This document shows positions 7,535 to 63,979 of a DNA stretch of 64,000 bases, one piece after another. Location: the IMG/VR virus record IMGVR_UViG_3300028809_000010; one strand, written 5' to 3'. Below the pieces are notes generated by a model. The model searched no databases. It had not been told where the DNA came from and was given only the letters and a program-made list of their open reading frames with translations. The number at the start of each line of letters is the position of its first letter. The stretch's first letter is position 1. The DNA is from an uncultured virus (IMG/VR IMGVR_UViG_3300028809_000010) (lineage: Duplodnaviria > Heunggongvirae > Uroviricota > Caudoviricetes). The position numbers were made by a program, and so were the translations under genes.

Positions 7535-9777
7535 GCGGATACGCATCGGCGGCCGGAGAGTACTGGGCCAAGTCCTGGCGGGGAGTGTTGCCGCTGCCTC
7601 CGTCGAAGAAGTTCCCCCCACCTGTCGGCACCACCGGCCACGACGGCTACTACCCGAGCTGGCCGGACATCCAGGCATGGTCGGAGCAGACGCCGGATGC
7701 CAACCTGGGCCTGCGCCTGCCGAACACCGTCGTAGGAGTGGACGTCGACGCCTACAACGGCAAGACCGGCGGCCAGACCCTCGCCGAAGCCGAACGACGC
7801 TGGGGCGAGCTACCCCCGACCTGGCGTTCCACCTCCCGCAATGACGGCGTCTCCGGTATCCGGCTCTACCGCGTCCAGGCCGGGCTCGAGTTCGACACGA
7901 AGATCGGGTTCCCGGAGCTGGGCCTGGGGCATATCGAGGTCTGCCAGTTCTTCCACCGGTATGTGGTCGCCTGGCCGTCCATCCACGACGAGACCGGCCG
8001 GACCTACCGCTGGCTCGACCACGCCGGGATGGAGTCGGACATCCCCAGAGAGGGACATCTGCCGTACCTGCCGCAGCAGTGGGTGCAGGCTCTCGCGCGG
8101 GAGTCGGCCGGGCCGTTGTCGTCGGCGGATGTGAAGGCGGCACTGGCGGGACTGACCCAGGGGCCGCTGTCGCCGTCGGTACAGAAGGTCTTGGCGAGGG
8201 CGCTGATGGATCTCACCGGCAACCCCGAGTCCCGGCACGACACCACCCTGCATCACGTCTTCGACCTCCTGCGCGAGTCGGAGAAGGGCGAGTCCGGGGT
8301 GCAGACGGCCCTGGAGCAACTGCGGGCGGCATTCGTCAGGGTCGTCGGCAAGGACCGGGGTGAGCAGGCTGCCGCTGCGGAGTTCGACCGGATGGTGGCG
8401 GGGCAGCGCGGGCACGATCTGATCGCCACGTACCCGTCCAACCAGGGTCTGCTCGGGGCGCCGCCGAAGTCCCGGGTGTCGGCCTACCTGCCGGAGGAGC
8501 ACGCCCAGACTCTCGAGGCGGTGAGGCCACAGGGCCCCGAGAGCTGGCAGGAGGACATCGGACAGGCATTCGACGCTTCACCTCCAATGCAGTCCTTTGT
8601 GGACGTCGAATACGACCCGATCTGGGACCTGATGGGGACGGAGCCGCCGAAGCCGTCGGGAGTGGACGAAGGGAACCGGACGTCGTGGGGACTGCTCGAC
8701 ATCGACCAGCTGCTGTCCGACGACACCGAGCCGGAGCTGCCGACCGTGCTGAGGATGGACGACGGCACCCCGCTGTTCTATCCCGGCCGGGTCAACGCAT
8801 TGGTCGGCGAACCGGAGTCGGCGAAGTCCTGGCTGGCCCAGCTGGCGTCGACTCAGGAGATCCGGGCTGCCTGCAAAGCCATCTACATCGACTTCGAGGA
8901 CATCGGCCGGAACATCGTGGCGCGACTCCGACTGCTGGGTGCCGACGACTCCGAGATCAGGGGTTCGTTCGGCGTCTCCAACCCGGACAGCCCCCTCGGC
9001 GCCGACGAGCAAGAGGAACTGTTCGCGGCGGTGGACGAGCTGATGCCGACGGTCATCGTGGTCGATGGAGTGAACGCGGCGATGGTTCTGCTCGGGCTGG
9101 ACCTGGAGAAGAACACCGATTGCACCCAGTTCCACCAGTTCCTGCTCAAGCCCCTCACTCGTCAGGGCGCGGCCGTCATCACCGTCGACCACGTCCCGAA
9201 GAACAAGATGGGCCGGGGTGGTTTCGCAATCGGCGCGCAGGCGAAGAAGGCGATGGTCGACGGGGCGATGCTCGGTGTCACCTGCAAGGTCCCGTTCGGC
9301 GAGGGGCGCCTGGGCGAGCTGGAGATCGTGGTCCTGAAAGACAAGATCGGCAAAGTAAGAAAGCTCGCCGAGAAGCGCGGGAACGACGATTACCTGGCGA
9401 CCGTGGAAATTGACGCCAGGCAGGAGGGCCGGGTCGTCATCTCCATTTGCAAGAAAGGTACCGGAAATGGCTCGGACGGAAATGGAATAAGCAAATCCGA
9501 CGCCAATCTGCTGTTCAAGATGGCCCGCGTCTCGGAATTCCTGGACCGCGCAGGACGAGAGGACGGACTTTCCTTCACCGCCATTTTCAAGGAGCTCAAA
9601 GGCGGGCGGGACGAGCTGGCGCGGGCGCTGACGGCACTGGAGGAGCGCGGGTCCATCGAGGTAGTGGACGGGCCTCGAGCGAGTCGTCTGCACCGCTTCG
9701 TCACGCGCTTCCAGCCGACCGATCTCGACCTCTTGGGTTCGCCGGAGAGCACGACTGATACGTCCGGTAGTGACTGA
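7531..9777 (+). CDS. Bifunctional DNA primase/polymerase fused to an AAA/RecA-like helicase
   Basis: Prim-pol motifs NLGLRL, VGVDVD and YVVAWPSIH; Walker A-like GEPESAKS, IYIDFED and IVVDG. Confidence 0.9.
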   Translation: MSGYASAAGEYWAKSWRGVLPLPPSKKFPPPVGTTGHDGYYPSWPDIQAWSEQTPDANLGLRLPNTVVGVDVDAYNGKTGGQTLAEAERRWGELPPTWRSTSRNDGVSGIRLYRVQAGLEFDTKIGFPELGLGHIEVCQFFHRYVVAWPSIHDETGRTYRWLDHAGMESDIPREGHLPYLPQQWVQALARESAGPLSSADVKAALAGLTQGPLSPSVQKVLARALMDLTGNPESRHDTTLHHVFDLLRESEKGESGVQTALEQLRAAFVRVVGKDRGEQAAAAEFDRMVAGQRGHDLIATYPSNQGLLGAPPKSRVSAYLPEEHAQTLEAVRPQGPESWQEDIGQAFDASPPMQSFVDVEYDPIWDLMGTEPPKPSGVDEGNRTSWGLLDIDQLLSDDTEPELPTVLRMDDGTPLFYPGRVNALVGEPESAKSWLAQLASTQEIRAACKAIYIDFEDIGRNIVARLRLLGADDSEIRGSFGVSNPDSPLGADEQEELFAAVDELMPTVIVVDGVNAAMVLLGLDLEKNTDCTQFHQFLLKPLTRQGAAVITVDHVPKNKMGRGGFAIGAQAKKAMVDGAMLGVTCKVPFGEGRLGELEIVVLKDKIGKVRKLAEKRGNDDYLATVEIDARQEGRVVISICKKGTGNGSDGNGISKSDANLLFKMARVSEFLDRAGREDGLSFTAIFKELKGGRDELARALTALEERGSIEVVDGPRASRLHRFVTRFQPTDLDLLGSPESTTDTSGSD

Positions 9778-9782
9778 TAAGG

Positions 9783-9925
9783 CCACCGATCCGATTCGAT
9801 CCGGATGGGTCAGTCGGATCGGTCGCAAAAGGTCCCATTTCCCGACCCGATATCCCCGAGCTGACTGAGCCGACCTACCCCCCCCTTTAGGGGGGTAGTC
9901 GGATCGGTCGGATCGGTCGGGTGGG
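9783..9925. repeat. Iteron-like GATCGG/CCGATC repeats with a central palindrome; candidate replication origin
   Basis: Several ggatcggtc/ccgatcc units and a CTACCCCC...GGGGGTAG palindrome directly after the prim-pol/helicase gene. Confidence 0.55.
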
Positions 9926-10342
9926 AGCCGCCTCGGATGACTGGATGAAAGGAGGCGGATTGAGCCCGGGTAAGCCGAAGCAATCCGGATCGGTCAGGAG
10001 GGTCAGCAATGCCCACAGGACGACCAAGCCGAAGCTCGCGTACTGCCACCACTGCAAGCGTCACGTACTGAGCGCTACCTACGACGCCCTCCCGCGAACC
10101 TTCGACCCGGTACCTCTGACTATGGAAGGTGAGCTGGCCTGCCTTCTGCGCGGAGAAGCAACGTGGTTTATCGCGGGCGGGCATTTATACAAAAGGAATT
10201 CCTGGGCGATCAAAACAAGTCCGCGCGGTCTCGGGGGAATGATCGTGCAACCCCACCACTGCGACCACCCCCAGCCGTCGGGCTCTCACGCGAATTGGCC
10301 GCAGCCGAAAAGCGACGACCCGGGATTCTAGAAAGGCCGAAT

Positions 10343-20898: not shown

Positions 20899-21216
20899 TC
20901 ATCGCGCACCACCGAGAATGCGGAAAGCGTCGGCCAGCCCCTGGGGATCGTTCCTTCGCAGCAAGTTTGCCGCCATGTGGTGGCCGGACAGTCCCAGGTG
21001 GACGTCTACCGGGTTGCTCCCCACACGGAACAGCAGAGCCAGCGCTACAGGGTCGTTCCTGCGAAGCATCTCGCCGACGTTCGCGCGGATGGTGGATTGG
21101 GCGTAGCCCTTCAACGCGCGTTCGGAGTAGGCCCAGTCGAGGTTTGTGCGGGAATCCTCGGCCGTCAGATTCCATTCGTGGTCGGTGGTGTCGCTGGCCT
21201 TATCGAGAGTGATCAT
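20899..21216 (-). CDS. Hypothetical protein (probably first gene of the leftward operon)
   Basis: AGGAGGAAAG RBS. Confidence 0.6.
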   Translation of the reverse strand: MITLDKASDTTDHEWNLTAEDSRTNLDWAYSERALKGYAQSTIRANVGEMLRRNDPVALALLFRVGSNPVDVHLGLSGHHMAANLLRRNDPQGLADAFRILGGAR

Positions 21217-21504
21217 GGTTCTTTCCTCCTGGGTGTTGGTGTACGCAAATACGTGCTTTGAGCGACGCGGAGTGGAATCGAACCACTCTTTGATTGCCTG
21301 GTGCCCTAAGGCCGCGTCGAAAGTGTGAGTTGGATGGTTGGGTGGCTAGTCCAGCTTGCGACTCGCGTATGTGGCACATAGGGCCGATTAAGCCCACTTA
21401 GAGTTTCTGCGATCGCTGCCTATTGAGTTTGCCGATGTACGTGCGGAGTAAGCGTTAGGGAAGGGTGGAAATCGTCCGGCCCGCTAACCCGCCGTGAACT
21501 TCAT

Positions 21505-21779: not shown

Positions 21780-22095
21780 GTATGTGGCTACCTGTGTGCA
21801 CCATGCATACACGCACCCCCGTATACGCATACCTATGTGTACATACTACCTATGTGTATGCATAGTATGTACATACACACACAGTATGCATACACATACA
21901 TTGCATAGTTCAACTATCTAGAACACACACTATCTACATGAACACAATCTATTAGATCACTATCACACACCATGATCATCTGCATATGAACCATTGTATA
22001 TGCATAGTATGTATGCGCATACAGCCAAGCGATGTGCAGAGTACACACGCCGCATCGCACCCCGATCACTCGCGCAGACATGCACACACACCACC
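21780..22095. repeat. AT-richer alternating purine/pyrimidine tract (ATGCATA, CACACA, TATGTG units)
   Basis: Directly visible low-complexity non-coding sequence that contrasts with the GC-rich coding DNA. Confidence 0.8.
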
Positions 22096-27434: not shown

Positions 27435-27507
27435 TGGTCTGTAGCTCAGAGGACAGAGCACCGGTCTACGAAGCCGGGTGTCGCAGGTTCGACTCCTGCC
27501 AGATCAG
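27435..27507 (+). tRNA. tRNA-Arg(ACG)
   Basis: Canonical cloverleaf; CCGGT-CTACGAA-GCCGG. Confidence 0.9.
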
Positions 27508-27595
27508 CAAACGAACCCTCGGAATGTGCGCACGACCTCCGGGGTAGTAGGGATCAGCCCACGCCTCTCGAAGAAGCGAACCTCGGGCTGGATTC

Positions 27596-27681
27596 GGAAG
27601 GTGCCGCTGAATGGTCGGCAACCGGTGTCGAATACCGGGGTGGGGTAAAACCCAGGGGTTCGATCCCTCCACCTTCCTCCA
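27596..27681 (+). tRNA. tRNA-Ser(CGA)
   Basis: GGAAGGT/ACCTTCC acceptor, long variable arm, loop GTCGAAT, encoded CCA. Confidence 0.85.
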
Positions 27682-27682
27682 C

Positions 27683-27747
27683 GCCCCAACGGGTTGCTAG
27701 CGGCCACTTGATCAACGGCCGTGCTCGGGTTCGAATCCCGAGGGGGC
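27683..27747 (+). ncRNA. Truncated tRNA-like element
   Basis: GCCCC/GGGGC stem, T arm TCGGG-TTCGAAT-CCCGA, 11-nt anticodon-like loop, no D arm. Confidence 0.45.
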
Positions 27748-27750
27748 TCT

Positions 27751-27834
27751 GGAAGACAAATCGGCCGGGGGCCGAGCCGCGTTGCTAGCGCGTACGGGCA
27801 CTTGATGTCTGGGGTTCGAGACCTCTGTCTTCCG
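27751..27834 (+). tRNA. tRNA-Ser(GCT)
   Basis: GGAAGAC/GTCTTCC-G acceptor, loop TTGCTAG, long variable arm. Confidence 0.8.
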
Positions 27835-27837
27835 CAA

Positions 27838-27917
27838 CGGGGTGACCTCTTGGTAGAGGGAGCGGCCTGTAAAGCCGTGGCCGTAGTGCATTGGTGGTTC
27901 GACTCCATCCGCCCTGA
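27838..27917 (+). tRNA. tRNA-Tyr(GTA)
   Basis: GCGGC-CTGTAAA-GCCGT, long variable arm, discriminator A. Confidence 0.8.
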
Positions 27918-27919
27918 CT

Positions 27920-27995
27920 GTGGCCGAAGCTGAAGCGGATAAGCGCCCGGTTGTGGTCCGGGTAGTAGTGGGTTCGAGTCCCACCGGCCACCCCA
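27920..27995 (+). tRNA. tRNA-His(GTG)
   Basis: CCCGG-TTGTGGT-CCGGG, discriminator C, encoded CCA. Confidence 0.85.
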
Positions 27996-55982: not shown

Positions 55983-56030
55983 AAAAGCCCCCGGACCCTC
56001 TCGCCAAGGAGGTCACTCCGGGGGCTTTCC
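55983..56030. terminator. Bidirectional terminator
   Basis: AAAGCCCCCGGA...TCCGGGGGCTTT between convergent genes. Confidence 0.7.
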
Positions 56031-56044
56031 TGTTCCCGGGCCTC

Positions 56045-56269
56045 TCAACCGGGAAGCATCTCAGGCGCTATCTGCGCGAATTTCAGTCCGTGCCTGCGCA
56101 TGTGGGACTTCAGCAACTCCAGGGACTGCTTCCGGGGGCATTCACCGACCCGGCAAAGACCGTGCAGCGTCTGGTACGTCAGCGACCGCAGCACCTCTTC
56201 CCATTCGTAGGTGGTGCCGACCTCGGGGGCTGCGTGGCTCACTTGTAGAGCGGGGACGGGGCTTGCCAT
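56045..56269 (-). CDS. Small His/Cys hypothetical protein
   Basis: HGLCRVGECPRK; GAAAGG RBS. Confidence 0.55.
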   Translation of the reverse strand: MASPVPALQVSHAAPEVGTTYEWEEVLRSLTYQTLHGLCRVGECPRKQSLELLKSHMRRHGLKFAQIAPEMLPG

Positions 56270-56520
56270 TCCACGGCCTTCCTTTCACTGTCCGGGGGTG
56301 GAATCGGGAAGTCCCATCCCTTGTCGCGGCAGATCTCCAGTAGCTGCCAGCGGCGCAGACACGAGCTGCGGCAGTTACCAGGCCCGGCCTCGCAGTTTCG
56401 ATGCGACCACAGCCAAGTCCGGACCTGCTCTGGCCACTCGGCGAGGTAGTGCATCGACTCGGGCAGCGCATCGTGCTCCAGAACGGAGGGGTTGTACGCG
56501 CGGGGGGTGCGGTCCTTCAT
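56239..56520 (-). CDS. Small His/Cys hypothetical protein
   Basis: HRNC...CRSSCLRR; AAGGA RBS. Confidence 0.55.
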   Translation of the reverse strand: MKDRTPRAYNPSVLEHDALPESMHYLAEWPEQVRTWLWSHRNCEAGPGNCRSSCLRRWQLLEICRDKGWDFPIPPPDSERKAVEWQAPSPLYK

Positions 56521-56666
56521 GACAGATCCTTGAGGTGGAGACCCGTCGCGCCGGAGAGCGCATCATCCGGCACGACGGGGGTTTCGGGGGCGCCGGGGAG
56601 CAGTAGGCACAGCGCGATCACGGCCAGGCTCGGCGACAGGGGTACCAGCAGTGAGACAGTCCACAT
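56517..56666 (-). CDS. Small membrane peptide
   Basis: MWTVSLLVPLSPSLAVIALCLLLPG; AAGGGAG RBS. Confidence 0.45.
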   Translation of the reverse strand: MWTVSLLVPLSPSLAVIALCLLLPGAPETPVVPDDALSGATGLHLKDLS

Positions 56667-56770
56667 CGCTCTCCCTTTCGATGAGGCAGACTAGTAAGTC
56701 CGGTCACCAGACCATCCCACCCGGCCTAGAATTTTGTCCAGAGGGACACGCCAGAGGAGATGGACAACCC

Positions 56771-57376
56771 ATGCCGACCGTTGGACAGATCATTGCCTCG
56801 CGCCGCAAGCAACTCGGATTGAGTCAACCGGAGCTCGCCAAGCTGGTCGGCATATCAGAACGCCAGGTCAGCCGCTACGAGACCGACGATCAGAAGCTCA
56901 GCTTCGAAGGCGCGATAGCCATGTCCGACGCCTTGCAGATCAGCCTCGGAGAGCTCGCTGGACAGCTGGCAATGGGGGTTGACCTCGGAGGGCCCTGGCA
57001 CGCGTGCTGGCAGACAACTCGCGAGGGTCTGGAGCAGATCAACCGCCATCAGGTCTCGGTGACGCACACAACGGATTTCGTGACGCTGCGCGCTGGTGGC
57101 GACTACTCGTGGGCTGCGGAATTCCGGGTGGTAGACGACACGATGGGCGGCAGGTACTCAGCCCTCGAGCGCAACGAAAGGTCCTTGGGGCAGATGTTCT
57201 TCCACATACACCCCAACGGCGACGCCGCGATCGGGCGCTGGACAGGCCGCTGGGTGGACGGGATCGTCGGTGACGGTTGGGGAACTCTTGCCCGCACAGC
57301 TAGTCGGGCGGATAGACTCATGGGACTGGTACGCGATCTGCCCTATCTGACTGCCTGGCCCCTGGAGGACTCGTGA
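56771..57376 (+). CDS. XRE HTH regulator with C-terminal beta-rich domain
   Basis: RRKQLGLSQPELAKLVGISERQVSRYE; DLGGPWHACWQ...GRWTG. Confidence 0.8.
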   Translation: MPTVGQIIASRRKQLGLSQPELAKLVGISERQVSRYETDDQKLSFEGAIAMSDALQISLGELAGQLAMGVDLGGPWHACWQTTREGLEQINRHQVSVTHTTDFVTLRAGGDYSWAAEFRVVDDTMGGRYSALERNERSLGQMFFHIHPNGDAAIGRWTGRWVDGIVGDGWGTLARTASRADRLMGLVRDLPYLTAWPLEDS

Positions 57377-57660
57377 GGATCTACGCACCGTTCGATCGCG
57401 AAGAGACTTGGCACAGGACTAGTGCTGACGGCGTCGATGTCACCTGGAAGATAGCCGGTGGGGAAGCTCGGGTGATGTTCGTCCAGCCCGGCGATCACTG
57501 CTTCCCCGCCGACGCCTACCCCACCCTGACCGAGGCGAGGGAGCGCTTACCCGAGTTCGGTCACCACTGGGACCTGATTCACCAGGAGCTCGTCGACAAT
57601 CTCGGCTCCCCGTCGTCGGCGACACGCCAGCACGCGGAGTTCTTCAGCCTGCCGCACTGA
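57373..57660 (+). CDS. Hypothetical protein coupled to the XRE regulator
   Basis: GTGA overlap; GGAGGA RBS. Confidence 0.6.
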   Translation: MRIYAPFDREETWHRTSADGVDVTWKIAGGEARVMFVQPGDHCFPADAYPTLTEARERLPEFGHHWDLIHQELVDNLGSPSSATRQHAEFFSLPH

Positions 57661-57672
57661 CCCCCCCACGAG

Positions 57673-57714
57673 AGAAGCCCCCACCTGGAGTCGCATCCGG
57701 GTCGGGGGCTTCTG
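57673..57714. terminator. Bidirectional terminator
   Basis: AGAAGCCCCC...GGGGGCTTCT. Confidence 0.65.
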
Positions 57715-57781
57715 TGCTCTGCTAGGGCCTTAGGTCACCTACTGTTGAGTACATCCTAAATTGAAGGACAAGAGTTCCGGT

Positions 57782-58204
57782 TTAGTCGCGCATCCCTTCG
57801 ATCAGGCGGAGCTGCATGTCGGCGGCCTGATCGGTGAGCTCGGTGAGGGCTTCGTGGACGTCGGGAGGTAGTTCCACGGGTCGGGTGAGGCGTCGCAGCA
57901 GCTCGATCTGGGTGAGCATGGCCTTGACTTCGCTGGGGAGTCCCTGGCCGGGCTTCGGTGTACTGGGTGGCTCAAAGCCCTGTGCCAGGCGTTCCACAGT
58001 CCCTTCGGGCCACTTGAGCCCCTTGTCGAGTTTGCGCAGCGTGCCGGTCTGGGTCTTCTCGCTCAGGCGCCCGGCCTCGATGTTGATGATCGTGGGCTCA
58101 CTAGCCTCCCCACGCTCCGCGACCTCTTTCTGGGTTAGCCCGAGCTCATCCCGACGAGCGCGCACATGACGTGCGACATGGTCTGCGTACGGGTGCGAGT
58201 TCAT
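57782..58204 (-). CDS. Immunity repressor (XRE HTH)
   Basis: VRARRDELGLTQKEVAE...TIINIEAG...LDKGLKWPEG; divergent from Cro. Confidence 0.85.
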   Translation of the reverse strand: MNSHPYADHVARHVRARRDELGLTQKEVAERGEASEPTIINIEAGRLSEKTQTGTLRKLDKGLKWPEGTVERLAQGFEPPSTPKPGQGLPSEVKAMLTQIELLRRLTRPVELPPDVHEALTELTDQAADMQLRLIEGMRD

Positions 58205-58376
58205 ACACAGATCATGCCGTGTATAACTTTTTGAGGCAAGAGGCGATGCCCATGTCCGCCGGATGTCCCCTCTGACCTGGGAGTTTGCGACTTCTTAGCT
58301 GCGACTAAAAAGTTCCTAAAAAATACATGCCCGCTAGGTCTTGGCAACTAAAGACTGCTTGTGATGTAGTTCATAT
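58205..58376. promoter_or_regulatory. Divergent repressor/Cro promoters, probably leaderless
   Basis: Minus strand TTGCCT-17-CATGAT-6-ATG; plus strand TTGGCA-18-TGTAGT-6-ATG; AAAAAGTT/CTAAA-type boxes. Confidence 0.6.
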
Positions 58377-58613
58377 ATGCAACGACCGATTCGCACCAAT
58401 GGCACACAGATTCCTGTACCGATTGAGTGGGTACGGAAGCACATGAATCTCACCCAGAAGGAGCTATACGACCTGCTCCAACAGATGGGGGTCGAGTGTT
58501 CGCTATCGACGTTGTCCCACGTAGAGACCGGCAAGAGAGACTTCTCCGCTGAGATGGCCCGCAACGTCGGCACCGCGATCTCCAGGATCATCGCCCAGCG
58601 GGAGCAGTCGTGA
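58377..58613 (+). CDS. Cro-like HTH protein
   Basis: RKHMNLTQKEL...STLSHVETGKR. Confidence 0.8.
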   Translation: MQRPIRTNGTQIPVPIEWVRKHMNLTQKELYDLLQQMGVECSLSTLSHVETGKRDFSAEMARNVGTAISRIIAQREQS

Positions 58614-58806
58614 TCACCCCCGAAGTAGTAGCCGACAAGGCTCGCAAGCTGGGTCCGATGCCAGCCCATATCGAGCACCTTCTGCTCTCTCGCTTCTCAG
58701 AAGCTATCTGCCAGCAATTCGAAGCTGGAGAATCCGTCAATACCCCTGCCGCATAAGCGGTTTCGCCTCCACGGCTGGTCCGTCGAGCCACCCTGTACCC
58801 GTCTTT

Positions 58807-58863
58807 GCCTCCAGCGGCTATGCAGCGGTGATCGCGCCTGGGTTCGAGTCCCGGGGGAGGCCC
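58807..58863 (+). ncRNA. Mini tRNA-like element (acceptor plus T arm)
   Basis: GCCTCC/GGAGGC closing CTGGG-TTCGAGT-CCCGG. Confidence 0.5.
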
Positions 58864-59105
58864 TAAATCCAACGGCTACGGCTGGTTGGCGTGCGCAAGC
58901 ACGGGTTCGGCAGCACCTTGGCAGCTGCACGGTTCGACCCACACCTACAAACGCGAGCTCCGGTTCGTGGAAGTGGGTCACCTTAACGTGCATGTATGCG
59001 AATACGTGCATGAGATGTGGGCGTATACGGGAGGCCCGACAGTCCCGGTAAGACCAACGGCCACCTACACCTTCGTGACGCGAAGAGGTAAGGCCCACAT
59101 CCCCT
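58864..59105 (+). ncRNA. Structured non-coding RNA of unknown class
   Basis: Consecutive hairpins with two UNCG and two GNRA tetraloops, plus a 9-bp long-range stem. Confidence 0.6.
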
Positions 59106-59188
59106 GGACCGGTAGCTCAACGGAAGAGCACTGCCGCGCGGATCAACAGGTACAGAAGACGCAGGTTCGAATCCTGCCCGGTCCCCCA
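59106..59188 (+). ncRNA. tRNA-like RNA with canonical acceptor, D and T arms and CCA but an enlarged anticodon loop
   Basis: GGACCGG/CCGGTCC-C-CCA, TAGCTCAACGGAAGAGC, GCAGG-TTCGAAT-CCTGC; about 13-nt loop. Confidence 0.75.
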
Positions 59189-59343
59189 ATCCGATTCCAC
59201 CCCAACATCTTTCAAGGAGGCATCATGCCCAGACTCACCAGCCAACAGGTCGCCGACGTTCTGATGCGGCACAGCCGGTACTTCTCCCACTCCGGCTACG
59301 GCCAGGACCCCAATGTCAGCGCCCAGCTCGTCGAGGTTCTGCC

Positions 59344-59643
59344 GTGACGGCGTCGGTGGAGGACTTCGAGATGACCCGCCACGCCCTCGAGCGAGTTCAG
59401 GACATGCTGGTCACCCCGGAGGAGATCCGGCAGGCGATGCTGAACCCCATCAAGATCAAGCCTCACTACAGCCAGAAGCACGGCCTCGGTGAGTACTACT
59501 TCAGCGGGCGGATAGCACTGGTAGTCGTCACCGACGCCGAGACCCGTAAGCGCCGCGTCATCACCGTCGTCTGGCGGCGAGACCGGATGTGGGCCAAGGA
59601 CTTCCGGCAGTTCGGACCGTACGGCGACAGGGCCCCCCGATGA
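59344..59643 (+). CDS. DUF4258-like (RelE/BECR-fold) protein
   Basis: MTRHALERV...EIRQAMLNP...IALVV...VITV. Confidence 0.65.
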   Translation: MTASVEDFEMTRHALERVQDMLVTPEEIRQAMLNPIKIKPHYSQKHGLGEYYFSGRIALVVVTDAETRKRRVITVVWRRDRMWAKDFRQFGPYGDRAPR

Positions 59644-59945
59644 ACGAGGTCCGAGAGCTGCTCGAAAGCCTGCTGACGCATGAAGGCTGGATGACCCACG
59701 GTAAATGCCGGGGAGCCAATCCGGACCGTTACCTCTCCGACAAGCTCCCGCCGTTCCCCCCGGCCGCTCGCGAAGCCCGGCTGGAGGAGCTGTGCGGCGG
59801 CTGTCCGGTGAGGCGGCAATGCGCCGGATACGCCCTCCGCGTCGAACTGACCCAGGTCATCGTCTGCGGAATCCCCCTCACCGCACACCCCGACAAGGCC
59901 CAAAAGGATGCACTCAGGGCCATCAAGGACGGAAAGAAGCCTTGA
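59640..59945 (+). CDS. WhiB-family protein
   Basis: WMTHGKCRG...LCGGCPVRRQC...VIVCG. Confidence 0.85.
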   Translation: MNEVRELLESLLTHEGWMTHGKCRGANPDRYLSDKLPPFPPAAREARLEELCGGCPVRRQCAGYALRVELTQVIVCGIPLTAHPDKAQKDALRAIKDGKKP

Positions 59946-60355
59946 GTACAGACCCCGAAATCCACACCGAATCGGTCGAGCATCTGGACTTCGAAGTGAC
60001 GTGCTGCGGATGCGATAAGCCCGCCTCGGCATTGCTGTGCTGGCACGGCCACAACCCCGAATTCATCTGCCCGACCCATCACCGAATGGTCCGCGACAAG
60101 GGCGAAGGGGTTCTGGAACAGCTCGGCTCCATCTCCTGCGCGTGGTGCGGAAAGACCTTCCCGACTGTCGACGGATTCACAGAACCGAGGTACCTGAAAT
60201 GAACTTCAACCCCTACGAGCAGGTCGAATCACCGGCCGACGCTCGAGTATTCGCCAAGACGGTCCGGAGTCACTGGGTCGCTCTGGTCCAGGAGGGGTTC
60301 ACCGAGGACGAGGCGTTCCGCATCATTCGGGACCTGTTCGCCGCTAACCGAGGGG

Positions 60356-60874
60356 GTGAGTGAGGTGCTAGTGGCCTCCGGTTTCGTTGTCGGCGTCGGT
60401 CTCTGCTTCATCGCTGTAGCCATCTTCGGGTGGAAAGAGTCGCGAGCCGAGAAGAAGAAGCCCGACAACTTCGGTCGCCCTATCGCCGTCAAGCTCGACG
60501 CAAACCCGCATGACCGCCGCGCCGACGAACTCCGCCGAAAAGGTCTCGAGGCCGAGAACAAGGAACTCGAGGAAGAGGCCAGGCGGACCGCCTTGGAAAA
60601 GCTGGCGGAAGTGCCCGCATTCAAAAGCACTCGCTATTGCCCGAAGTGCGACAGTGAGGATCTGAATCGCCGCCATGACAAAGACTTCCGGCTCGGCTAC
60701 TTCAAGCGCGTCGAGGACCCAGCGACGCGGAGCGAATTCTTCATCTCTTCCCGCTACATCAAACTGCGCGGTGAAGTACTCGCCGTCAGCTGCAACGGCT
60801 GTGGTTTCGCGATCGGCCCCGAACGCACGGCCGACTTTAGCGACAAGATCCGGCTGGTCCGCGAGGGCTGGTGA
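60356..60874 (+). CDS. Membrane-anchored Zn-ribbon protein
   Basis: N-terminal TM; CPKC...CNGC. Confidence 0.6.
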   Translation: MSEVLVASGFVVGVGLCFIAVAIFGWKESRAEKKKPDNFGRPIAVKLDANPHDRRADELRRKGLEAENKELEEEARRTALEKLAEVPAFKSTRYCPKCDSEDLNRRHDKDFRLGYFKRVEDPATRSEFFISSRYIKLRGEVLAVSCNGCGFAIGPERTADFSDKIRLVREGW

Positions 60875-60885
60875 AAGGAATACCC

Positions 60886-61176
60886 ATGAACAGCAAAGAA
60901 GAACTGATCCGTCATCAATACAAGGTGCTGGCTCACGTGAAGTCCGAACGCAACCGTCTGAAAGAGATGGAGGCGGCAGCAAAGGAAGCCCTACTCGATC
61001 TGATCGGCGACGACTACACCGGTGTCTACGTGGCCCCTGACGGCGAGCTCCTGTTCCGTCGAGACTACTACGCCTCCAGCAACTTCGACATCAAAGCCTT
61101 CCGCGAGAAGCACCCGGAGCTGGCCGAGGAGTTCACCCGCCGCAGCTCCGCGTACAAGCTGACGATCGGGGAGTGA
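60886..61176 (+). CDS. Coiled-coil protein resembling the C-terminus of YqaJ-type proteins
   Basis: FDIKAFREKHPELAEEFTRRS. Confidence 0.55.
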   Translation: MNSKEELIRHQYKVLAHVKSERNRLKEMEAAAKEALLDLIGDDYTGVYVAPDGELLFRRDYYASSNFDIKAFREKHPELAEEFTRRSSAYKLTIGE

Positions 61177-61177
61177 C

Positions 61178-61546
61178 ATGGGCGACGTACTCGTGCTGAA
61201 AGCGGCGATCGACTACCAGATCACGATGTCCCTCGGTCAGATCGCGGGATTCACCTCGTCCACCCCGATGCTGGCAAAAGCGCGCACTGTCTATCTCGCG
61301 CTGCTGTCGGAGCTGTCGTCGATGGCCGAGATGGACGACCCCGCAACGCATCTCCAAGGAATGATCCGGCGCACCCGAGATGACCTGGAGGGCGTGGACA
61401 TCCCCAGCGAGGCCGAAATCGTCAGCCGGGGTACCGCCGCCGACTGGAACGACCTGCCTCGCTTCATCGCCGCCATCAAGGACACCTACGTCAAGTCGAT
61501 GGGCGCGATGCTCGTTTACGCCGGATACGAAGTCGAAACCGAATGA
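61178..61546 (+). CDS. Hypothetical protein
   Basis: GGGAG RBS; coupled ORF. Confidence 0.55.
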   Translation: MGDVLVLKAAIDYQITMSLGQIAGFTSSTPMLAKARTVYLALLSELSSMAEMDDPATHLQGMIRRTRDDLEGVDIPSEAEIVSRGTAADWNDLPRFIAAIKDTYVKSMGAMLVYAGYEVETE

Positions 61547-61757
61547 AGAACTACGCCGGTGTTTTTTGGAAGACCCGAAGTGGCATAGGCGTCTACATTC
61601 CCGAGCTTCATGCCTACACGGAAGTCCCGGCGAACGGCAATGTCGATGCCCGCGTCCGCGATCTGATCGTCCTGAACTGCCCGAAAGATTCGTGGTGGTC
61701 CTGGAATTCGACTTTCACCCTCCAGCGTCTCAACGAGCCCCCGAAAGGATTCATGCG

Positions 61758-62174
61758 ATGACCGACATCAACTGGCCGCTCATGACGGAAACCCTCGACC
61801 ACATCCACAAGAACCCGCACCTCTGGAACCAGGGGCTGTGGGCGTGTGGCACCCAGCGCTGCATCGCAGGCCACGCCGCCGAGCTGTCCGGCAAGATCCC
61901 AGCGGACCATGTCGTCGCGAGCGGCGGAATGATTCTCGAGCCCCGATGGCTGCACCGCATCGGCGAGGGGCTGTATCCGTCCGGCGCCGCTCACTCAGCC
62001 ATTGACAGCGGTGAGCTGAAGCGGCTGCACGTCGCCGAGGTCGCCCGCGAGGCTCTGGGCCTGCCCGACGAAGAGCTCTTCAACGGCGAGAACACCTGGG
62101 AAGACGTCATGGCCACGGTGTCGGAGTGGGCCGCCGAGGACGGAATCGACCTGCCGAAGGAGTGGTTCGCATGA
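61758..62174 (+). CDS. Actinophage hypothetical protein
   Basis: HI..NP..WNQ..W.CGT..CIAGHA...VAREALGL...LF. Confidence 0.6.
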   Translation: MTDINWPLMTETLDHIHKNPHLWNQGLWACGTQRCIAGHAAELSGKIPADHVVASGGMILEPRWLHRIGEGLYPSGAAHSAIDSGELKRLHVAEVAREALGLPDEELFNGENTWEDVMATVSEWAAEDGIDLPKEWFA

Positions 62175-62458
62175 CCCCGCTCGAGCAGCTGGTGGGGGCC
62201 CGGGAGCTTATCGCCGAGCACGGCTGGGTCAGGGGAAACTACGGGGACCGGAACGTCGGCTTCTGCGCGCTCGGAGCACTCCACGTGGCGAGCAAGAGCT
62301 GGACCAGCTGGGGCGCCCAGAACCTCCTGGTCAAGGCGGGTGGCGCTGGAGCTCTTGGCGTGATCAGCCACAACGACATCCACATCCAGTCCAAGCAGGA
62401 AGCCCTGGAGTGGTTCGACAAGGCGATCCGGCTGGCCCAGGCGGAGGTGGCGGCATGA
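62171..62458 (+). CDS. DUF6197-like protein (third paralogue)
   Basis: GWVRG...FCALGAL...HND...FDKAI. Confidence 0.65.
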   Translation: MTPLEQLVGARELIAEHGWVRGNYGDRNVGFCALGALHVASKSWTSWGAQNLLVKAGGAGALGVISHNDIHIQSKQEALEWFDKAIRLAQAEVAA

Positions 62459-62846
62459 GCGGGCGGATCAAGATCGTCAACGACCGCGTTCTTCTCGGCG
62501 GCGAGGAGCTGACCGAAACCGACGCCAGAGACCTGATTGCCGAGCTCGAGGTCACGCTCAGCCTTCTCGAGCAGTGGCGCTACGACAAGTGGCGGCGGGA
62601 GGTCCGGGAGCGCTACGGGCCGAAGGAGGTGACTGATGGCGCGTAAACGCAACGACCGCAAAGGAACCCGCCAGACCGAGGCACGGGAGCGGCAGCTGGC
62701 CAGGGATCTCCGTACCACCGAGGAGCAGCTGGACGAGCTCAATGTCCGCTCCGGCCTGGACCGCGATGCCTGCCGCGAACGTGCCCGCCTCTACCTGCGT
62801 TCGGAGCTGGAGGAGCTGCACTTCGAAGCATGGGAGGGAGCCCTCG

Positions 62847-63293
62847 ATGTCCATTCCTGACATGTCCTGGATGGATCGGGCCAGCTGCATCGGCCGGGCA
62901 GGGGAATTCGACGCAGAACGGCTCAACGATCTCGGCATCCGCAGCCGCCGGTATCAGGCTCAGCTCCTCTGCAATGGCTGCCCGGTCATGCGGCAATGCA
63001 ACCTCCAGGCCCAAGAGCAAGGCGCGCGAGGAGTGGTCCGGGGCGGTCGCACATACACCGACGACCGGGTCAGGCCCAAGGATGATCGCTGGACGTATCC
63101 GGTGCCGACGGCCAAGGTGCTCGACGACCGCCGGACCGAGCAGTACGAAGCCCGCTACACCCGGATCTCCTCGGCGAAGTGGGAAGTCGACGGCGAGGAG
63201 ATCCGGGCGGAGGAAGCGTTGGCAGCTGCCAGTCGGCGTCGCCCGTACAGCAGCCAAGCCGCTATCTACCGATACGCATTGGAGCAGCGATGA
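62847..63293 (+). CDS. WhiB-family protein
   Basis: WMDRASC...LCNGCPVMRQC...GVVRGG. Confidence 0.85.
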   Translation: MSIPDMSWMDRASCIGRAGEFDAERLNDLGIRSRRYQAQLLCNGCPVMRQCNLQAQEQGARGVVRGGRTYTDDRVRPKDDRWTYPVPTAKVLDDRRTEQYEARYTRISSAKWEVDGEEIRAEEALAAASRRRPYSSQAAIYRYALEQR

Positions 63294-63306
63294 GGGGCCT
63301 TCTCCG

Positions 63307-63720
63307 GTGAGGTATCAGGCCCTGTCCGGCGAGTGGCTGGAAGGGTCTCCGGTCGGCCCCGGTCCGAAAGCCAGGACTGTCTGGGTGATGCGGCCGGATC
63401 AGACCTTCGCTGTGGTACAGCCTGCGACCGGCGCCAACCACGGAACCGAAGTCGAGTGGGATCAGCCGCAGTTCCTCGAGCCGGTGCCCAGGCAGGTGGA
63501 GGACTTCGCCCGGGAGATCGTCGACCGCCACCGCGAACTGGTGCTGACCTTCCGGCAATGCGGCATCGAGACCACCCCGGCCGGACCGGAATACGAAGCG
63601 GCCGTAGCCATTCTGAAGCAAGCCGAAGCCGCCAGGGCCAGCCGGACCCCGTTCATCAACGCCCACGGCGGCAACAAAGCCATATCCGACAAACGATTCA
63701 AAGAGCTATCAGGAGAGTGA
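63307..63720 (+). CDS. Hypothetical protein
   Basis: ORF follows WhiB; start uncertain. Confidence 0.5.
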   Translation: MRYQALSGEWLEGSPVGPGPKARTVWVMRPDQTFAVVQPATGANHGTEVEWDQPQFLEPVPRQVEDFAREIVDRHRELVLTFRQCGIETTPAGPEYEAAVAILKQAEAARASRTPFINAHGGNKAISDKRFKELSGE

Positions 63721-63721
63721 C

Positions 63722-63979
63722 ATGAGCAAATTCGAACTCGTCGCCGAACTTCCCTCGAAGGGTCCGCGCGGCCGTAAGCCCGATCCGCTGCTGCTGGAGT
63801 TCGCCGACTTCCTCCGCGAGAACAAGGGCCAGTGGGGCAAGTGGCCGATCGACCACAAACCGTCGACACTGGCGACCCGGGTCAACCGCATCAACAAAGG
63901 TCGAGATCCGATCTTCTACGCCGAGGAGTTCGAAGCGACCGTGCGTAACGGCGTGCTGTACGTGAGGACGCTGGCGTGA
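63722..63979 (+). CDS. Small putative DNA-binding protein
   Basis: AGGAG RBS; LP..GRK...LRENKGQW...FEATVR...YVR. Confidence 0.6.
   Translation: MSKFELVAELPSKGPRGRKPDPLLLEFADFLRENKGQWGKWPIDHKPSTLATRVNRINKGRDPIFYAEEFEATVRNGVLYVRTLA

Follow-up and report, generated by a model that had tools for sequence, protein, structure and literature searches.

Mini tRNA-like elements beside an orphan structured RNA downstream of cro in an uncultured actinophage: candidate punctuation of the early transcript

Why should a phage carry, directly downstream of its cro-like gene, a hairpin-rich stretch that begins with one tRNA-like element and ends with another? The locus occupies positions 58807-59188 (+) of a 64,000-nt stretch of DNA from an uncultured virus of the Caudoviricetes (IMG/VR record IMGVR_UViG_3300028809_000010), which at its full length we call the window. 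A first-pass annotation, made from the letters alone, had described here a tetraloop-rich RNA of about 240 nt bracketed by two aberrant tRNA-like units, and had proposed that these units are RNase P/Z punctuation marks releasing an unclassified early non-coding RNA (ncRNA). Our analysis resolves the locus into an array of three parts: a 56-nt mini tRNA-like (58807-58862; the mini), a 244-nt spacer RNA (58863-59105) and an 83-nt tRNA-like (59106-59188). Similarly built minis are found again in other actinophages, on the coding strand and in short gaps that follow early genes, and their T stems covary; this recurrent bracketing mini, more than the 244-nt RNA, is the lasting result. That the minis and the tRNA-like are punctuation marks for host RNase P/Z, which would segment the early transcript and release the spacer RNA, is a reading by analogy to which we give a probability of about 0.45, somewhat below even.

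Anatomy of the array

The upstream element had been noticed at first sight as a small acceptor plus T arm, and the sequence, RNAfold and a structural scan bear this out. It folds with a 6-bp acceptor (58807-58812/58856-58861), followed by a discriminator C (58862) without CCA, and a 6-bp T stem (58837-58842/58850-58855) closed by the T loop UUCGAGU (58843-58849); the 24-nt linker contains two 3-bp mini-arms, and the minimum free energy (MFE) structure is a mini-cloverleaf. The only Rfam match of the mini is to mascRNA-menRNA (RF01684), at 24.4 bits (E 0.022 in a 1-kb search); the gathering score of that family is 42.5, so the mini is not a member. The tRNA model (RF00005) gave no match at E ≤10 to mini or spacer, that is, outside 59106-59185, and ARAGORN found nothing in either of them at a lowered threshold. 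A strict structural scan, which accepted only elements with a T loop, four or more of the five T-stem pairs, five or more terminal acceptor pairs and a linker of 6-34 nt, returned from the whole 64 kb this mini, a second one at 21263-21318 (-) and two artefacts inside real tRNAs, against a mean of 0.4 matches per 64 kb, counting both strands, in block shuffles. The second mini is also 56 nt long, with a 24-nt linker, an acceptor in which 7 of 7 positions pair (GACGCGG/CCGCGUC), the T loop UUCGAUU and a fold z of -3.17, and it sits in the leader of the minus-strand gene 20899-21216, with 46 nt between it and the ATG. The two minis of this phage differ at three acceptor and three T-stem pairs, with the pairing kept.

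An unannotated mini-like element was further recognised by eye at 27683-27748 (+), between two irregular tRNA calls of a tRNA cluster; it has a 5-bp acceptor (GCCCC/GGGGC) and the T arm CUCGGG-UUCGAAU-CCCGAG, and it was missed by the strict scan, and RNAfold does not recover its T arm. Of the five ARAGORN calls that make up the cluster itself (27435-27995), only Arg and His pass the gathering score of the Rfam tRNA family; the others, two 'Ser' and one 'Tyr', are irregular, two of these three weakly matching the tRNA-Sec model at 30.8 and 33.7 bits, and the motifs GTTGCTAGCG and CACTTGAT are each present there in two copies. The window also contains an RNA-ligase-family gene (1096-1656, +; PF09414, E 1.8e-13), which may bear on tRNA damage or repair.

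At the other end of the array, the 83-nt tRNA-like is detected on the plus strand by Rfam, ARAGORN and RNAfold alike. Its score of 51.7 bits against RF00005 (match 59106-59185) exceeds the gathering score of 29, and at gathering thresholds it is the only thing that Rfam reports in the array region. The element has a 7-bp acceptor, a 4-bp D stem, a 5-bp T stem, a discriminator C and an encoded CCA (59186-59188). ARAGORN calls it tRNA-Pro(CGG), with a 13-nt variable region, by accepting two C.A mismatches in the anticodon stem; Rfam leaves 19 nt of the anticodon arm unaligned, and RNAfold draws a 4-bp hairpin with a 3-nt loop. The 5-bp anticodon stem and 7-nt loop of a decoding tRNA were found by none of the three. 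Since a short, irregular hairpin region stands in place of the anticodon arm, the element is, on these models, a tRNA mimic and not a decoding tRNA, in agreement with its initial description as an aberrant tRNA mimic.

The spacer between these two units is an orphan, rich in stem-loops, and folds on the plus strand into six helical units (H1-H6) with base-pair probabilities mostly of 0.8-1.0. H1 (58869-58889) is an 8-bp stem with one bulged G, capped by a UACG loop (58877-58880); H2 (58890-58903) pairs CGUGC with GCACG around a GCAA loop (58895-58898); H3 spans 58908-58931; H4 (58936-58979) combines the 7-bp stem GACCCAC/GUGGGUC (58936-58942/58973-58979) with an inner hairpin (58952-58969) that carries a UCCG loop (58959-58962); H5 (58987-59012) is an 11-bp stem with a GCGA loop (58998-59001); and H6 (59014-59101) is a three-way junction, whose 9-bp closing stem, GAUGUGGGC (59014-59022) with GCCCACAUC (59093-59101), encloses the hairpins 59033-59062 and 59066-59090. 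The hairpins that had been listed from the letters (those with UACG, GCAA, UCCG and GCGA loops, and the 59014/59093 stem) are thus all present, both in the sequence and in the pair probabilities, although the GCGA-capped stem is 11 bp and not 10 bp long.

The label tetraloop-rich is likewise justified. GNRA- or UNCG-capped hairpins of at least 5 bp number 37 on the plus and 30 on the minus strand of the 64 kb, and the only 244-nt segments with at least three of them, on either strand, start at 58726-58959 on the plus strand, which makes the spacer a unique cluster; the segment that coincides with the spacer has four, one of them a weak G.U-rich alternative. Folding is strand-specific, with an MFE z of -2.81 on the plus strand (0 of 200 shuffles as stable) versus -1.02 on the minus strand (28 of 200). 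The fold is real, and good but not exceptional. In addition, GGTTCG occurs five times on the plus strand within 58841-59169: two copies are the T loops of the flanking elements, and the other three, read by eye, lie outside true T arms, none of them forming a T arm.

The first-pass annotation had failed to match the RNA by eye to the consensus of tmRNA, 6S, group I intron or riboswitch; the spacer corresponds to no Rfam family. With the spacer alone, Rfam 15 gave best scores of 15.8, 14.2 and 14.1 bits, to unrelated small nucleolar RNA, microRNA and small RNA models, which is noise; ARAGORN, which also detects permuted forms, called 0 tmRNA genes, and the 5' strand pairing with the 3' acceptor of 59106-59188 is the element's own. 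Searches by blastn (word size 11) with 58700-59300 and 56000-63900 against 50,697 phage records returned no homologue of the spacer, the sole match being a 69-nt tRNA-Cys-like stretch aligned to the tRNA-like unit. Exact 20-23-mers of the spacer and of the odd anticodon region are found in IMG/VR only in the phage's own contig, and the motif CCAACGGCYAC...CACCTACA, which occurs twice in the spacer, has 101 IMG/VR loci, none of them like this region. A covariance model of the spacer (R2, built from the single 244-nt sequence) was run over 19 and then 15 related or candidate loci; across these 34 it scored at best 12.3 bits, in Rhodococcus phage Shagrat (minus strand), with ≤8.7 bits elsewhere, no match in the Corynebacterium phocae array described below and none at YrlA sites. 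A search for tandem repeats of the ToxI type, as in type III toxin-antitoxin systems, gave only short repeats of 9-16 nt, present in two copies. We also considered and rejected a derivation of the spacer from the mini through tandem duplication of 58-nt units (all pairwise z ≤1.5 against shuffles).

Could the region code for protein instead? ORFs are present mechanically, on the plus strand at 58886-59347, which had been singled out beforehand as the frame whose conserved translation would speak for a gene, and on the minus strand at 58697-59098. The flanking genes have a G+C content of ≥0.8 at one codon position and ≤0.5 at another, whereas from about 58760 to 59200 no codon position stands out. 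For ORF 58886-59347 no homologous protein was found (10 candidates scored, none significant), and Pfam gave no match at E ≤1 to it or to the three minus-strand ORFs tested across the gap; moreover, this plus-strand ORF would run through the 51.7-bit tRNA-like. The gap 58757-59224, which holds the array, is non-coding, and a coding region ranks, together with the Y-RNA-like module considered below, among the readings that we hold to be extremely improbable.

Minis in other actinophages and covariation of their T stems

Relatives of the mini were sought upstream of distant BrnT-like homologues in GenBank phages. In the Gordonia phages Neville and Dardanus, the T-arm motif with a matching acceptor lies just 3' of early helix-turn-helix (HTH) genes, and seven Gordonia phages have a mini that begins 5-40 nt beyond the stop codon annotated for an excise, HTH or gp38 gene (5 nt in Rabbitrun, 6 nt in Neville, 17 nt each in Syleon, Sephiroth and Kudefre, 24 nt in Octobien14 and 40 nt in Dardanus), one or two genes downstream of a cro-like gene. 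When a 731-nt query from Neville was used, the alignment between the Neville-type and Octobien14-type genera covered nothing but the mini and the next 140 nt or so, at about 70% identity (alignment A1). An approximately 50-nt hairpin follows the mini in the Gordonia alignment and shows three compensatory pairs among 6 sequences, few of which are independent. The Dardanus mini has a different acceptor sequence, again self-complementary, and scores 22.3 bits against the mascRNA model (RF01684).

Several annotations beside these loci deserve mention. In Neville (L111, 322-857) and in Mycobacterium phage Aegeus (L110, 1598-2186), tiny GenBank hypothetical genes of 23-51 codons lie downstream of cro/excise over stretches that hold tRNA-like or T-arm-like hairpins and may be non-coding RNA regions; the T arm of Aegeus, at about 2027-2045, is flanked by the 7-bp stem GCUGACU/AGUCAGC. 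In Dardanus (L112), a frame of about 85 codons at about 1766-2030, starting ATGAACCGTGAC and with several cysteines, lies in the 497-nt unannotated gap after the mini and is possibly a missed gene.

The layout of the window has a counterpart in a prophage of Corynebacterium phocae (L115), found by a pattern scan of IMG/VR. There, a 42-nt mini begins 2-3 nt after a stop codon and is followed by about 209 nt and an 88-nt aberrant tRNA-like, the same three-part arrangement, between an antirepressor-side gene block and an HTH_17 gene. In this second tRNA-like the acceptor, D arm and T arm are present, the anticodon arm is irregular and too long, and the score, against the tRNA-Sec model, is only 22.9 bits. 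Within it (1292-1205, -), the inner hairpin CGCC-UUUUAGA-GGCG has a loop of 7 nt, and the UUA at the centre of this loop would recognise the stop codon UAA.

In metagenomes, a pattern scan gave 18 loci, 13 of them inside real tRNAs and five being free-standing minis (two identical). One contig of 2.3 kb and 60% G+C (L249) carries, by eye, three minis in three consecutive gene gaps (at about 197-240, 493-535 and 907-950), each followed by 'A CGA', a hairpin, a ribosome-binding site and an ATG; the strict scan passes the middle one only, and the contig apparently offers the clearest picture of punctuation among the loci examined. The pattern scan of genome contigs was too loose, with at least 121 loci and with 94 inside ARAGORN tRNAs among the matches listed, and in a later scan of IMG/VR two of seven loci were inside real tRNAs. 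A free-standing match to the pattern in Nonomuraea sp. (L230, 264-333, -) is a partial YrlA match (34.5 bits) to the tRNA-like module, so the mini pattern scans also pick up Y-RNA-like loci.

From these loci we propose a class of mini tRNA-likes: intergenic elements of 40-56 nt on the strand of the flanking genes, in which a 5-7 bp acceptor-like stem is joined to a T stem of 5-6 bp with a U(U/G)CGA-type 7-nt loop, a short linker replacing the D and anticodon arms. The mini of the window falls within this class, and its 24-nt linker sets it apart from the 42-43-nt set; a covariance model built from the 42-43-nt minis (R1) matched only its T arm, at 17.9 bits.

Covariation was assessed on eight distinct 42-43-nt minis that aligned cleanly (alignment A5). 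The 56-nt minis were compared by eye and left out of the counted alignment because MAFFT could not align the differing linker lengths (A2), and acceptor pairs 1-4 and the inner three T-stem pairs carry no information because they are fixed by the search pattern. Among the remaining positions, T-stem pair 19:35 occurs as four pair types (CG, GC, AU and UG; 6 of 8 paired), T-stem pair 20:34 as three (GC, CG and GU; 8 of 8 paired), and acceptor pair 5:38 is G-C in seven minis and A-U in one. The covariation score is 0.208 versus 0.098 in shuffles (1 of 500 as high), and falls to ≤0.092 when the partners are slid. The T stems of the minis covary.

Processing by RNase P/Z and the competing explanations

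All these elements have in common the stack of acceptor and T arm, the feature read by RNase P, RNase Z and the CCA-adding enzyme, each of which also accepts minihelix substrates. Both flanks of the spacer carry such a stack (of 6+6 bp for the mini and, with CCA in addition, of 7+5 bp for the tRNA-like), and a U precedes both predicted RNase P sites. Given that minis lie on the coding strand in short gene gaps, often followed by a hairpin and a ribosome-binding site, the simplest reading is that they punctuate early transcripts. The array would then be a three-unit RNA that a temperate phage of mycolic-acid actinobacteria carries within its rightward early (cro) transcript. The two tRNA-like units would be cut by RNase P on their 5' sides, 58806/58807 and 59105/59106, and matured on their 3' sides by RNase Z or 3' trimming, with CCA addition as a possible further step. 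These cuts would separate the mRNA of cro and a 48-amino-acid (aa) ORF from that of a 40-aa ORF, the BrnT-like gene and WhiB, and would release the spacer as a discrete RNA of about 244 nt, or of about 300 nt with the mini attached. The idea put forward in the first-pass annotation has gained comparative support of an indirect kind from the recurrence of minis on the coding strand after early actinophage genes, the covariation of their T stems and the layout in C. phocae, whereas cleavage itself is something that we infer, as are co-transcription with cro and any function of a released spacer. Precedents exist: the available text of PMC11143913 has RNase P processing non-tRNA phage RNAs (phi80 M3 RNA and the P1/P7 C4 antisense RNA) as well as operon mRNAs, and that of PMC4201824 has the tRNA-like ncRNA YrlA of Mycobacterium smegmatis being cut by RNase P and receiving CCA.

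A number of observations weigh against this proposal. The spacer fold ranks 39th of 1046 244-nt segments of this phage after correction for GC content (top 4%), and the spacer, having no detectable relative, may be lineage-specific filler and not a conserved ncRNA; the spacers of the window and of the C. phocae array are unrelated. Most minis were found with a pattern that presupposes part of their structure, and four acceptor pairs and the T loop of the 42-43-nt set are invariant by construction. In that set, none of the 8 minis pairs acceptor positions 6:37 and only one pairs 7:36, which leaves no more than five regular acceptor pairs, a departure from the 7-bp acceptor given as a major RNase P determinant in the accessible part of PMC4201824. 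Finally, minis are rare in host genomes, with two weak R1 matches (about 29 bits) in 151 genomes (order of a Rhodococcus genome).

How do these elements relate to known systems? By analogy, those of the window would work like t-elements and mascRNA, and are members of neither, nor of the RNase P-matured phage RNAs, nor of YrlA. The mascRNA/MALAT1-MEN-beta family (RF01684) comprises cloverleaf-like mimics of about 56-60 nt without a normal anticodon arm, and when RNase P cuts on the 5' side of mascRNA, the upstream RNA gains its 3' end as well. Of all Rfam families, this alone gives the minis a weak match (24.4 bits for the window, 22.3 bits for Dardanus); it is, however, a vertebrate nuclear family, and with scores far below 42.5 bits the likeness is one of shape, not of membership. 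Among phages, the T4 tRNA cluster includes two stable non-tRNA RNAs. The T4 tRNA-cluster precursors, phi80 M3 and P1/P7 C4, as far as the available text of PMC11143913 describes them, resemble the proposed spacer RNA as phage ncRNAs cut from longer early transcripts, and C4 even lies in an immunity operon; they differ in belonging to enterobacterial phages, in having no similarity of sequence or structure and in showing no mini acceptor/T-arm unit repeated between genes. The t-elements of plant mitochondrial mRNAs are, in the portion available of Forner et al. 2007 (PMC1920247), non-decoding tRNA-like structures beside protein genes at which RNase P/Z make mRNA ends. Like them, the phage minis are intergenic and on the same strand, in putatively polycistronic transcripts; unlike the minis, whose processing is putative, t-elements belong to another kingdom, with a protein-only RNase P, and there is no sequence relationship.

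YrlA (RF02553; Chen et al. 2014, PMC4201824) shares with the array the character of an actinobacterial or phage ncRNA with a tRNA-like module, and the closing stem of H6 (GAUGUGGGC/GCCCACAUC; regions 59012-59024 and 59092-59104) has 9-10 nt in common with the M. smegmatis YrlA termini, as represented by primers in the accessible part of that paper. In the same source, however, the tRNA-like unit of YrlA is permuted and nested in a Ro-binding stem, beside a Ro60/TROVE gene, whereas the topology of the window array is ordinary. The YrlA model gave no match at E ≤10 in the 1 kb or in the spacer alone, no TROVE/Ro gene was seen among 92 ORFs scanned, and the spacer model found none of 12 actinobacterial YrlA-like loci (best 7.5 bits, elsewhere in a locus); the YrlA model itself had sub-threshold matches in 41 of 151 genomes, none past the cut-off, with no link to the spacer RNA. 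A Y-RNA-like module thus shares the extremely low standing of the coding reading.

The alternatives that remain take the elements for something other than cut sites. They could be tRNA-mimic decoys, anticodon-less look-alikes that, perhaps along with the GGUUCG motifs of the spacer, would soak up host enzymes acting on the acceptor end and T arm early in infection, be they defence nucleases, nucleotidyltransferase toxins or modification enzymes. MenT/AbiEii-type toxins act on tRNA acceptor ends. In keeping with decoys, the minis retain exactly the acceptor/T-arm part and lack an anticodon arm; there are several copies per phage (two clear ones and the weaker 27683-27748 here, three by eye in L249); three of the five GGTTCG copies lie outside true T arms; the phage has an RNA-ligase-family gene and irregular tRNAs; and immune nucleases that cleave tRNA tails are reported in the available part of PMC12851939. 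Yet a place between a stop codon and the hairpin, ribosome-binding site and ATG that come next is something a processing signal needs and a sponge does not, and no defence or anti-defence gene is linked to the elements, so that we regard decoys, and the targets envisaged for them, as unlikely. Decoys and punctuation are compatible and not mutually exclusive: an early battery of anticodon-less tRNA mimics might be cut out by host RNase P/Z and then serve as decoys, with the 244-nt RNA, including the three GGUUCG copies that form no T arm, as part of the sponge. This combination seems to us decidedly unlikely; if it is true, phage counter-defence RNAs would gain a new class in the mini tRNA-likes, whose role would go beyond that of cut sites. 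Another explanation is that both the mini and the aberrant tRNA are decaying remnants of a former tRNA cluster, separated by a neutral spacer, which would agree with the tRNA cluster at 27435-27995, where 3 of 5 ARAGORN calls fall below the Rfam tRNA gathering score, with the broken anticodon arm of 59106-59188 and with a spacer that has no relatives. Decay is hard to reconcile with minis of the same build at equivalent positions in distant Gordonia and Corynebacterium phages and in metagenome contigs (soil and other), with the compensatory nature of their T-stem changes, with a Gordonia mini region that forms a conserved island between flanks diverged beyond alignment, with a tetraloop cluster that is unique in 64 kb and specific to the plus strand, and with the negative outcome for the tandem-duplication origin of the spacer; its probability appears low.

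Two other explanations concern the site itself. Lambdoid phages have RNA elements of the nut/put type directly after cro, and the array, occupying that very position, could be a cis-acting leader that controls the 40-aa ORF, the BrnT-like gene and WhiB through processive antitermination directed at RNA polymerase, as a 5' stabiliser after cleavage, or at the level of translation. The hairpins that follow each mini just before the next ribosome-binding site in L249 and in the Gordonia phages, including the three compensatory pairs of the 50-nt hairpin, fit such a role. We nevertheless give it little weight: no terminator-like site was found that an antiterminator would have to override (in actinobacteria the test is a weak one), the tRNA-like 59106-59188 stands between the spacer and the ribosome-binding site, and the complementarity of the spacer to the start of the 40-aa ORF, 70-72% over 18-20 nt, is ordinary. 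Alternatively, the tRNA-like sequences could act as DNA, as attachment (att) or recombination sites for an integrase or another mobile element, given that tRNA 3' halves are common att cores and that Dardanus has a separate T-arm-like sequence beside its tyrosine-integrase gene. This is very improbable, as the complementarity of 5' and 3' acceptor strands is kept by compensatory changes, which an RNA helix needs and a crossover core does not, the serine integrase of this phage is 35 kb away, and L249 has its three copies in consecutive gene gaps.

If the minis are indeed cut sites, phages of Gordonia, Corynebacterium and related hosts would borrow host tRNA maturation to divide their early operons. 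Punctuation by tRNAs is textbook knowledge for mitochondria; in the full-text literature we found no description of it, or of such elements, in actinophages, and, as most subscription journals lie outside that search, this is not proof of absence. Punctuation would add a feature class to the annotation of actinophages, where some GenBank records put tiny hypothetical genes over such gene-free stretches, and would supply a natural set of compact bacterial processing tags; the 244-nt RNA would be a released, stable, early phage RNA. The proposal is directly testable, since the Gordonia phages with a mini are cultured isolates with a laboratory host.

Genomic setting and other features of the window

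The window is phage DNA throughout, with 62.8% G+C. Pfam domains identify a portal, a fused protease-capsid gene, a tape-measure-like gene and a ReqiPepy6 Gp37-type tail protein, together with an LGFP-repeat lysin, a cutinase-type LysB, three WhiB genes, a Prim-Pol/helicase and a serine integrase; LysB and LGFP indicate a mycolic-acid actinobacterial host. The closest cultured phages are Rhodococcus equi phages (portal identity about 52-56%), the nearest being Rhodococcus phage Shagrat (about 55%), whose annotation lists no tRNA and in 42 kb of which the strict structural scan found no mini tRNA-like. A viral contig from a soil metagenome matches the array at 100% identity, and contigs from four soil runs (80% identity) have the same sequence, with a single T>G at 59314, outside the array.

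The array sits in the immunity region of the phage, and its placement just downstream of cro stands as first described. A repressor-like HTH gene of 140 aa (57782-58204, -) is divergent from the cro-like HTH gene of 78 aa (58377-58613, +; Pfam HTH_3, E 1.4e-5), the first gene of the rightward early operon, across a G+C-poorer gap of 172 nt. The cro-like protein has no relative but itself among 5.8 billion proteins, and none in IMG/VR. A 48-aa ORF without a Pfam match (58610-58756, +) overlaps the cro stop codon and is the last coding sequence before the gap, its codon-position G+C signal extending to about 58750. Beyond the array, an AAGGAGG ribosome-binding site (59214-59220, +) precedes the 40-aa ORF (59225-59347, +), also without a Pfam match, at which coding resumes, the signal being back at about 59200. 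This ORF is followed by a DUF4258/BrnT-like toxin-family gene (59344-59643, +; PF14076, E 2.4e-5), whose homologue in Aegeus is annotated 'BrnT-like toxin' and whose one weak relative in IMG/VR has no tRNA nearby, and then by a WhiB gene. A simple consensus scan of the plus strand from cro to WhiB, which for terminators is a weak test in actinobacteria, found no promoter-like or terminator-like site, which fits a single transcript.

Two other places in the window fold more stably than any other 244-nt segment after correction for GC content. The most stable (z -5.1) is a long, near-perfect hairpin or palindrome at 21789-22032, mainly 21800-21910, which is AT-rich (about 40% G+C), lies between the second mini and the serine integrase gene, has Rfam matches only to microRNA precursors, which are noise, and could be a DNA structure of the attP or origin type. 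The second most stable fold (z -4.3) lies at 9761-10004 (+), where the Prim-Pol/helicase gene ends and the next ORF begins.

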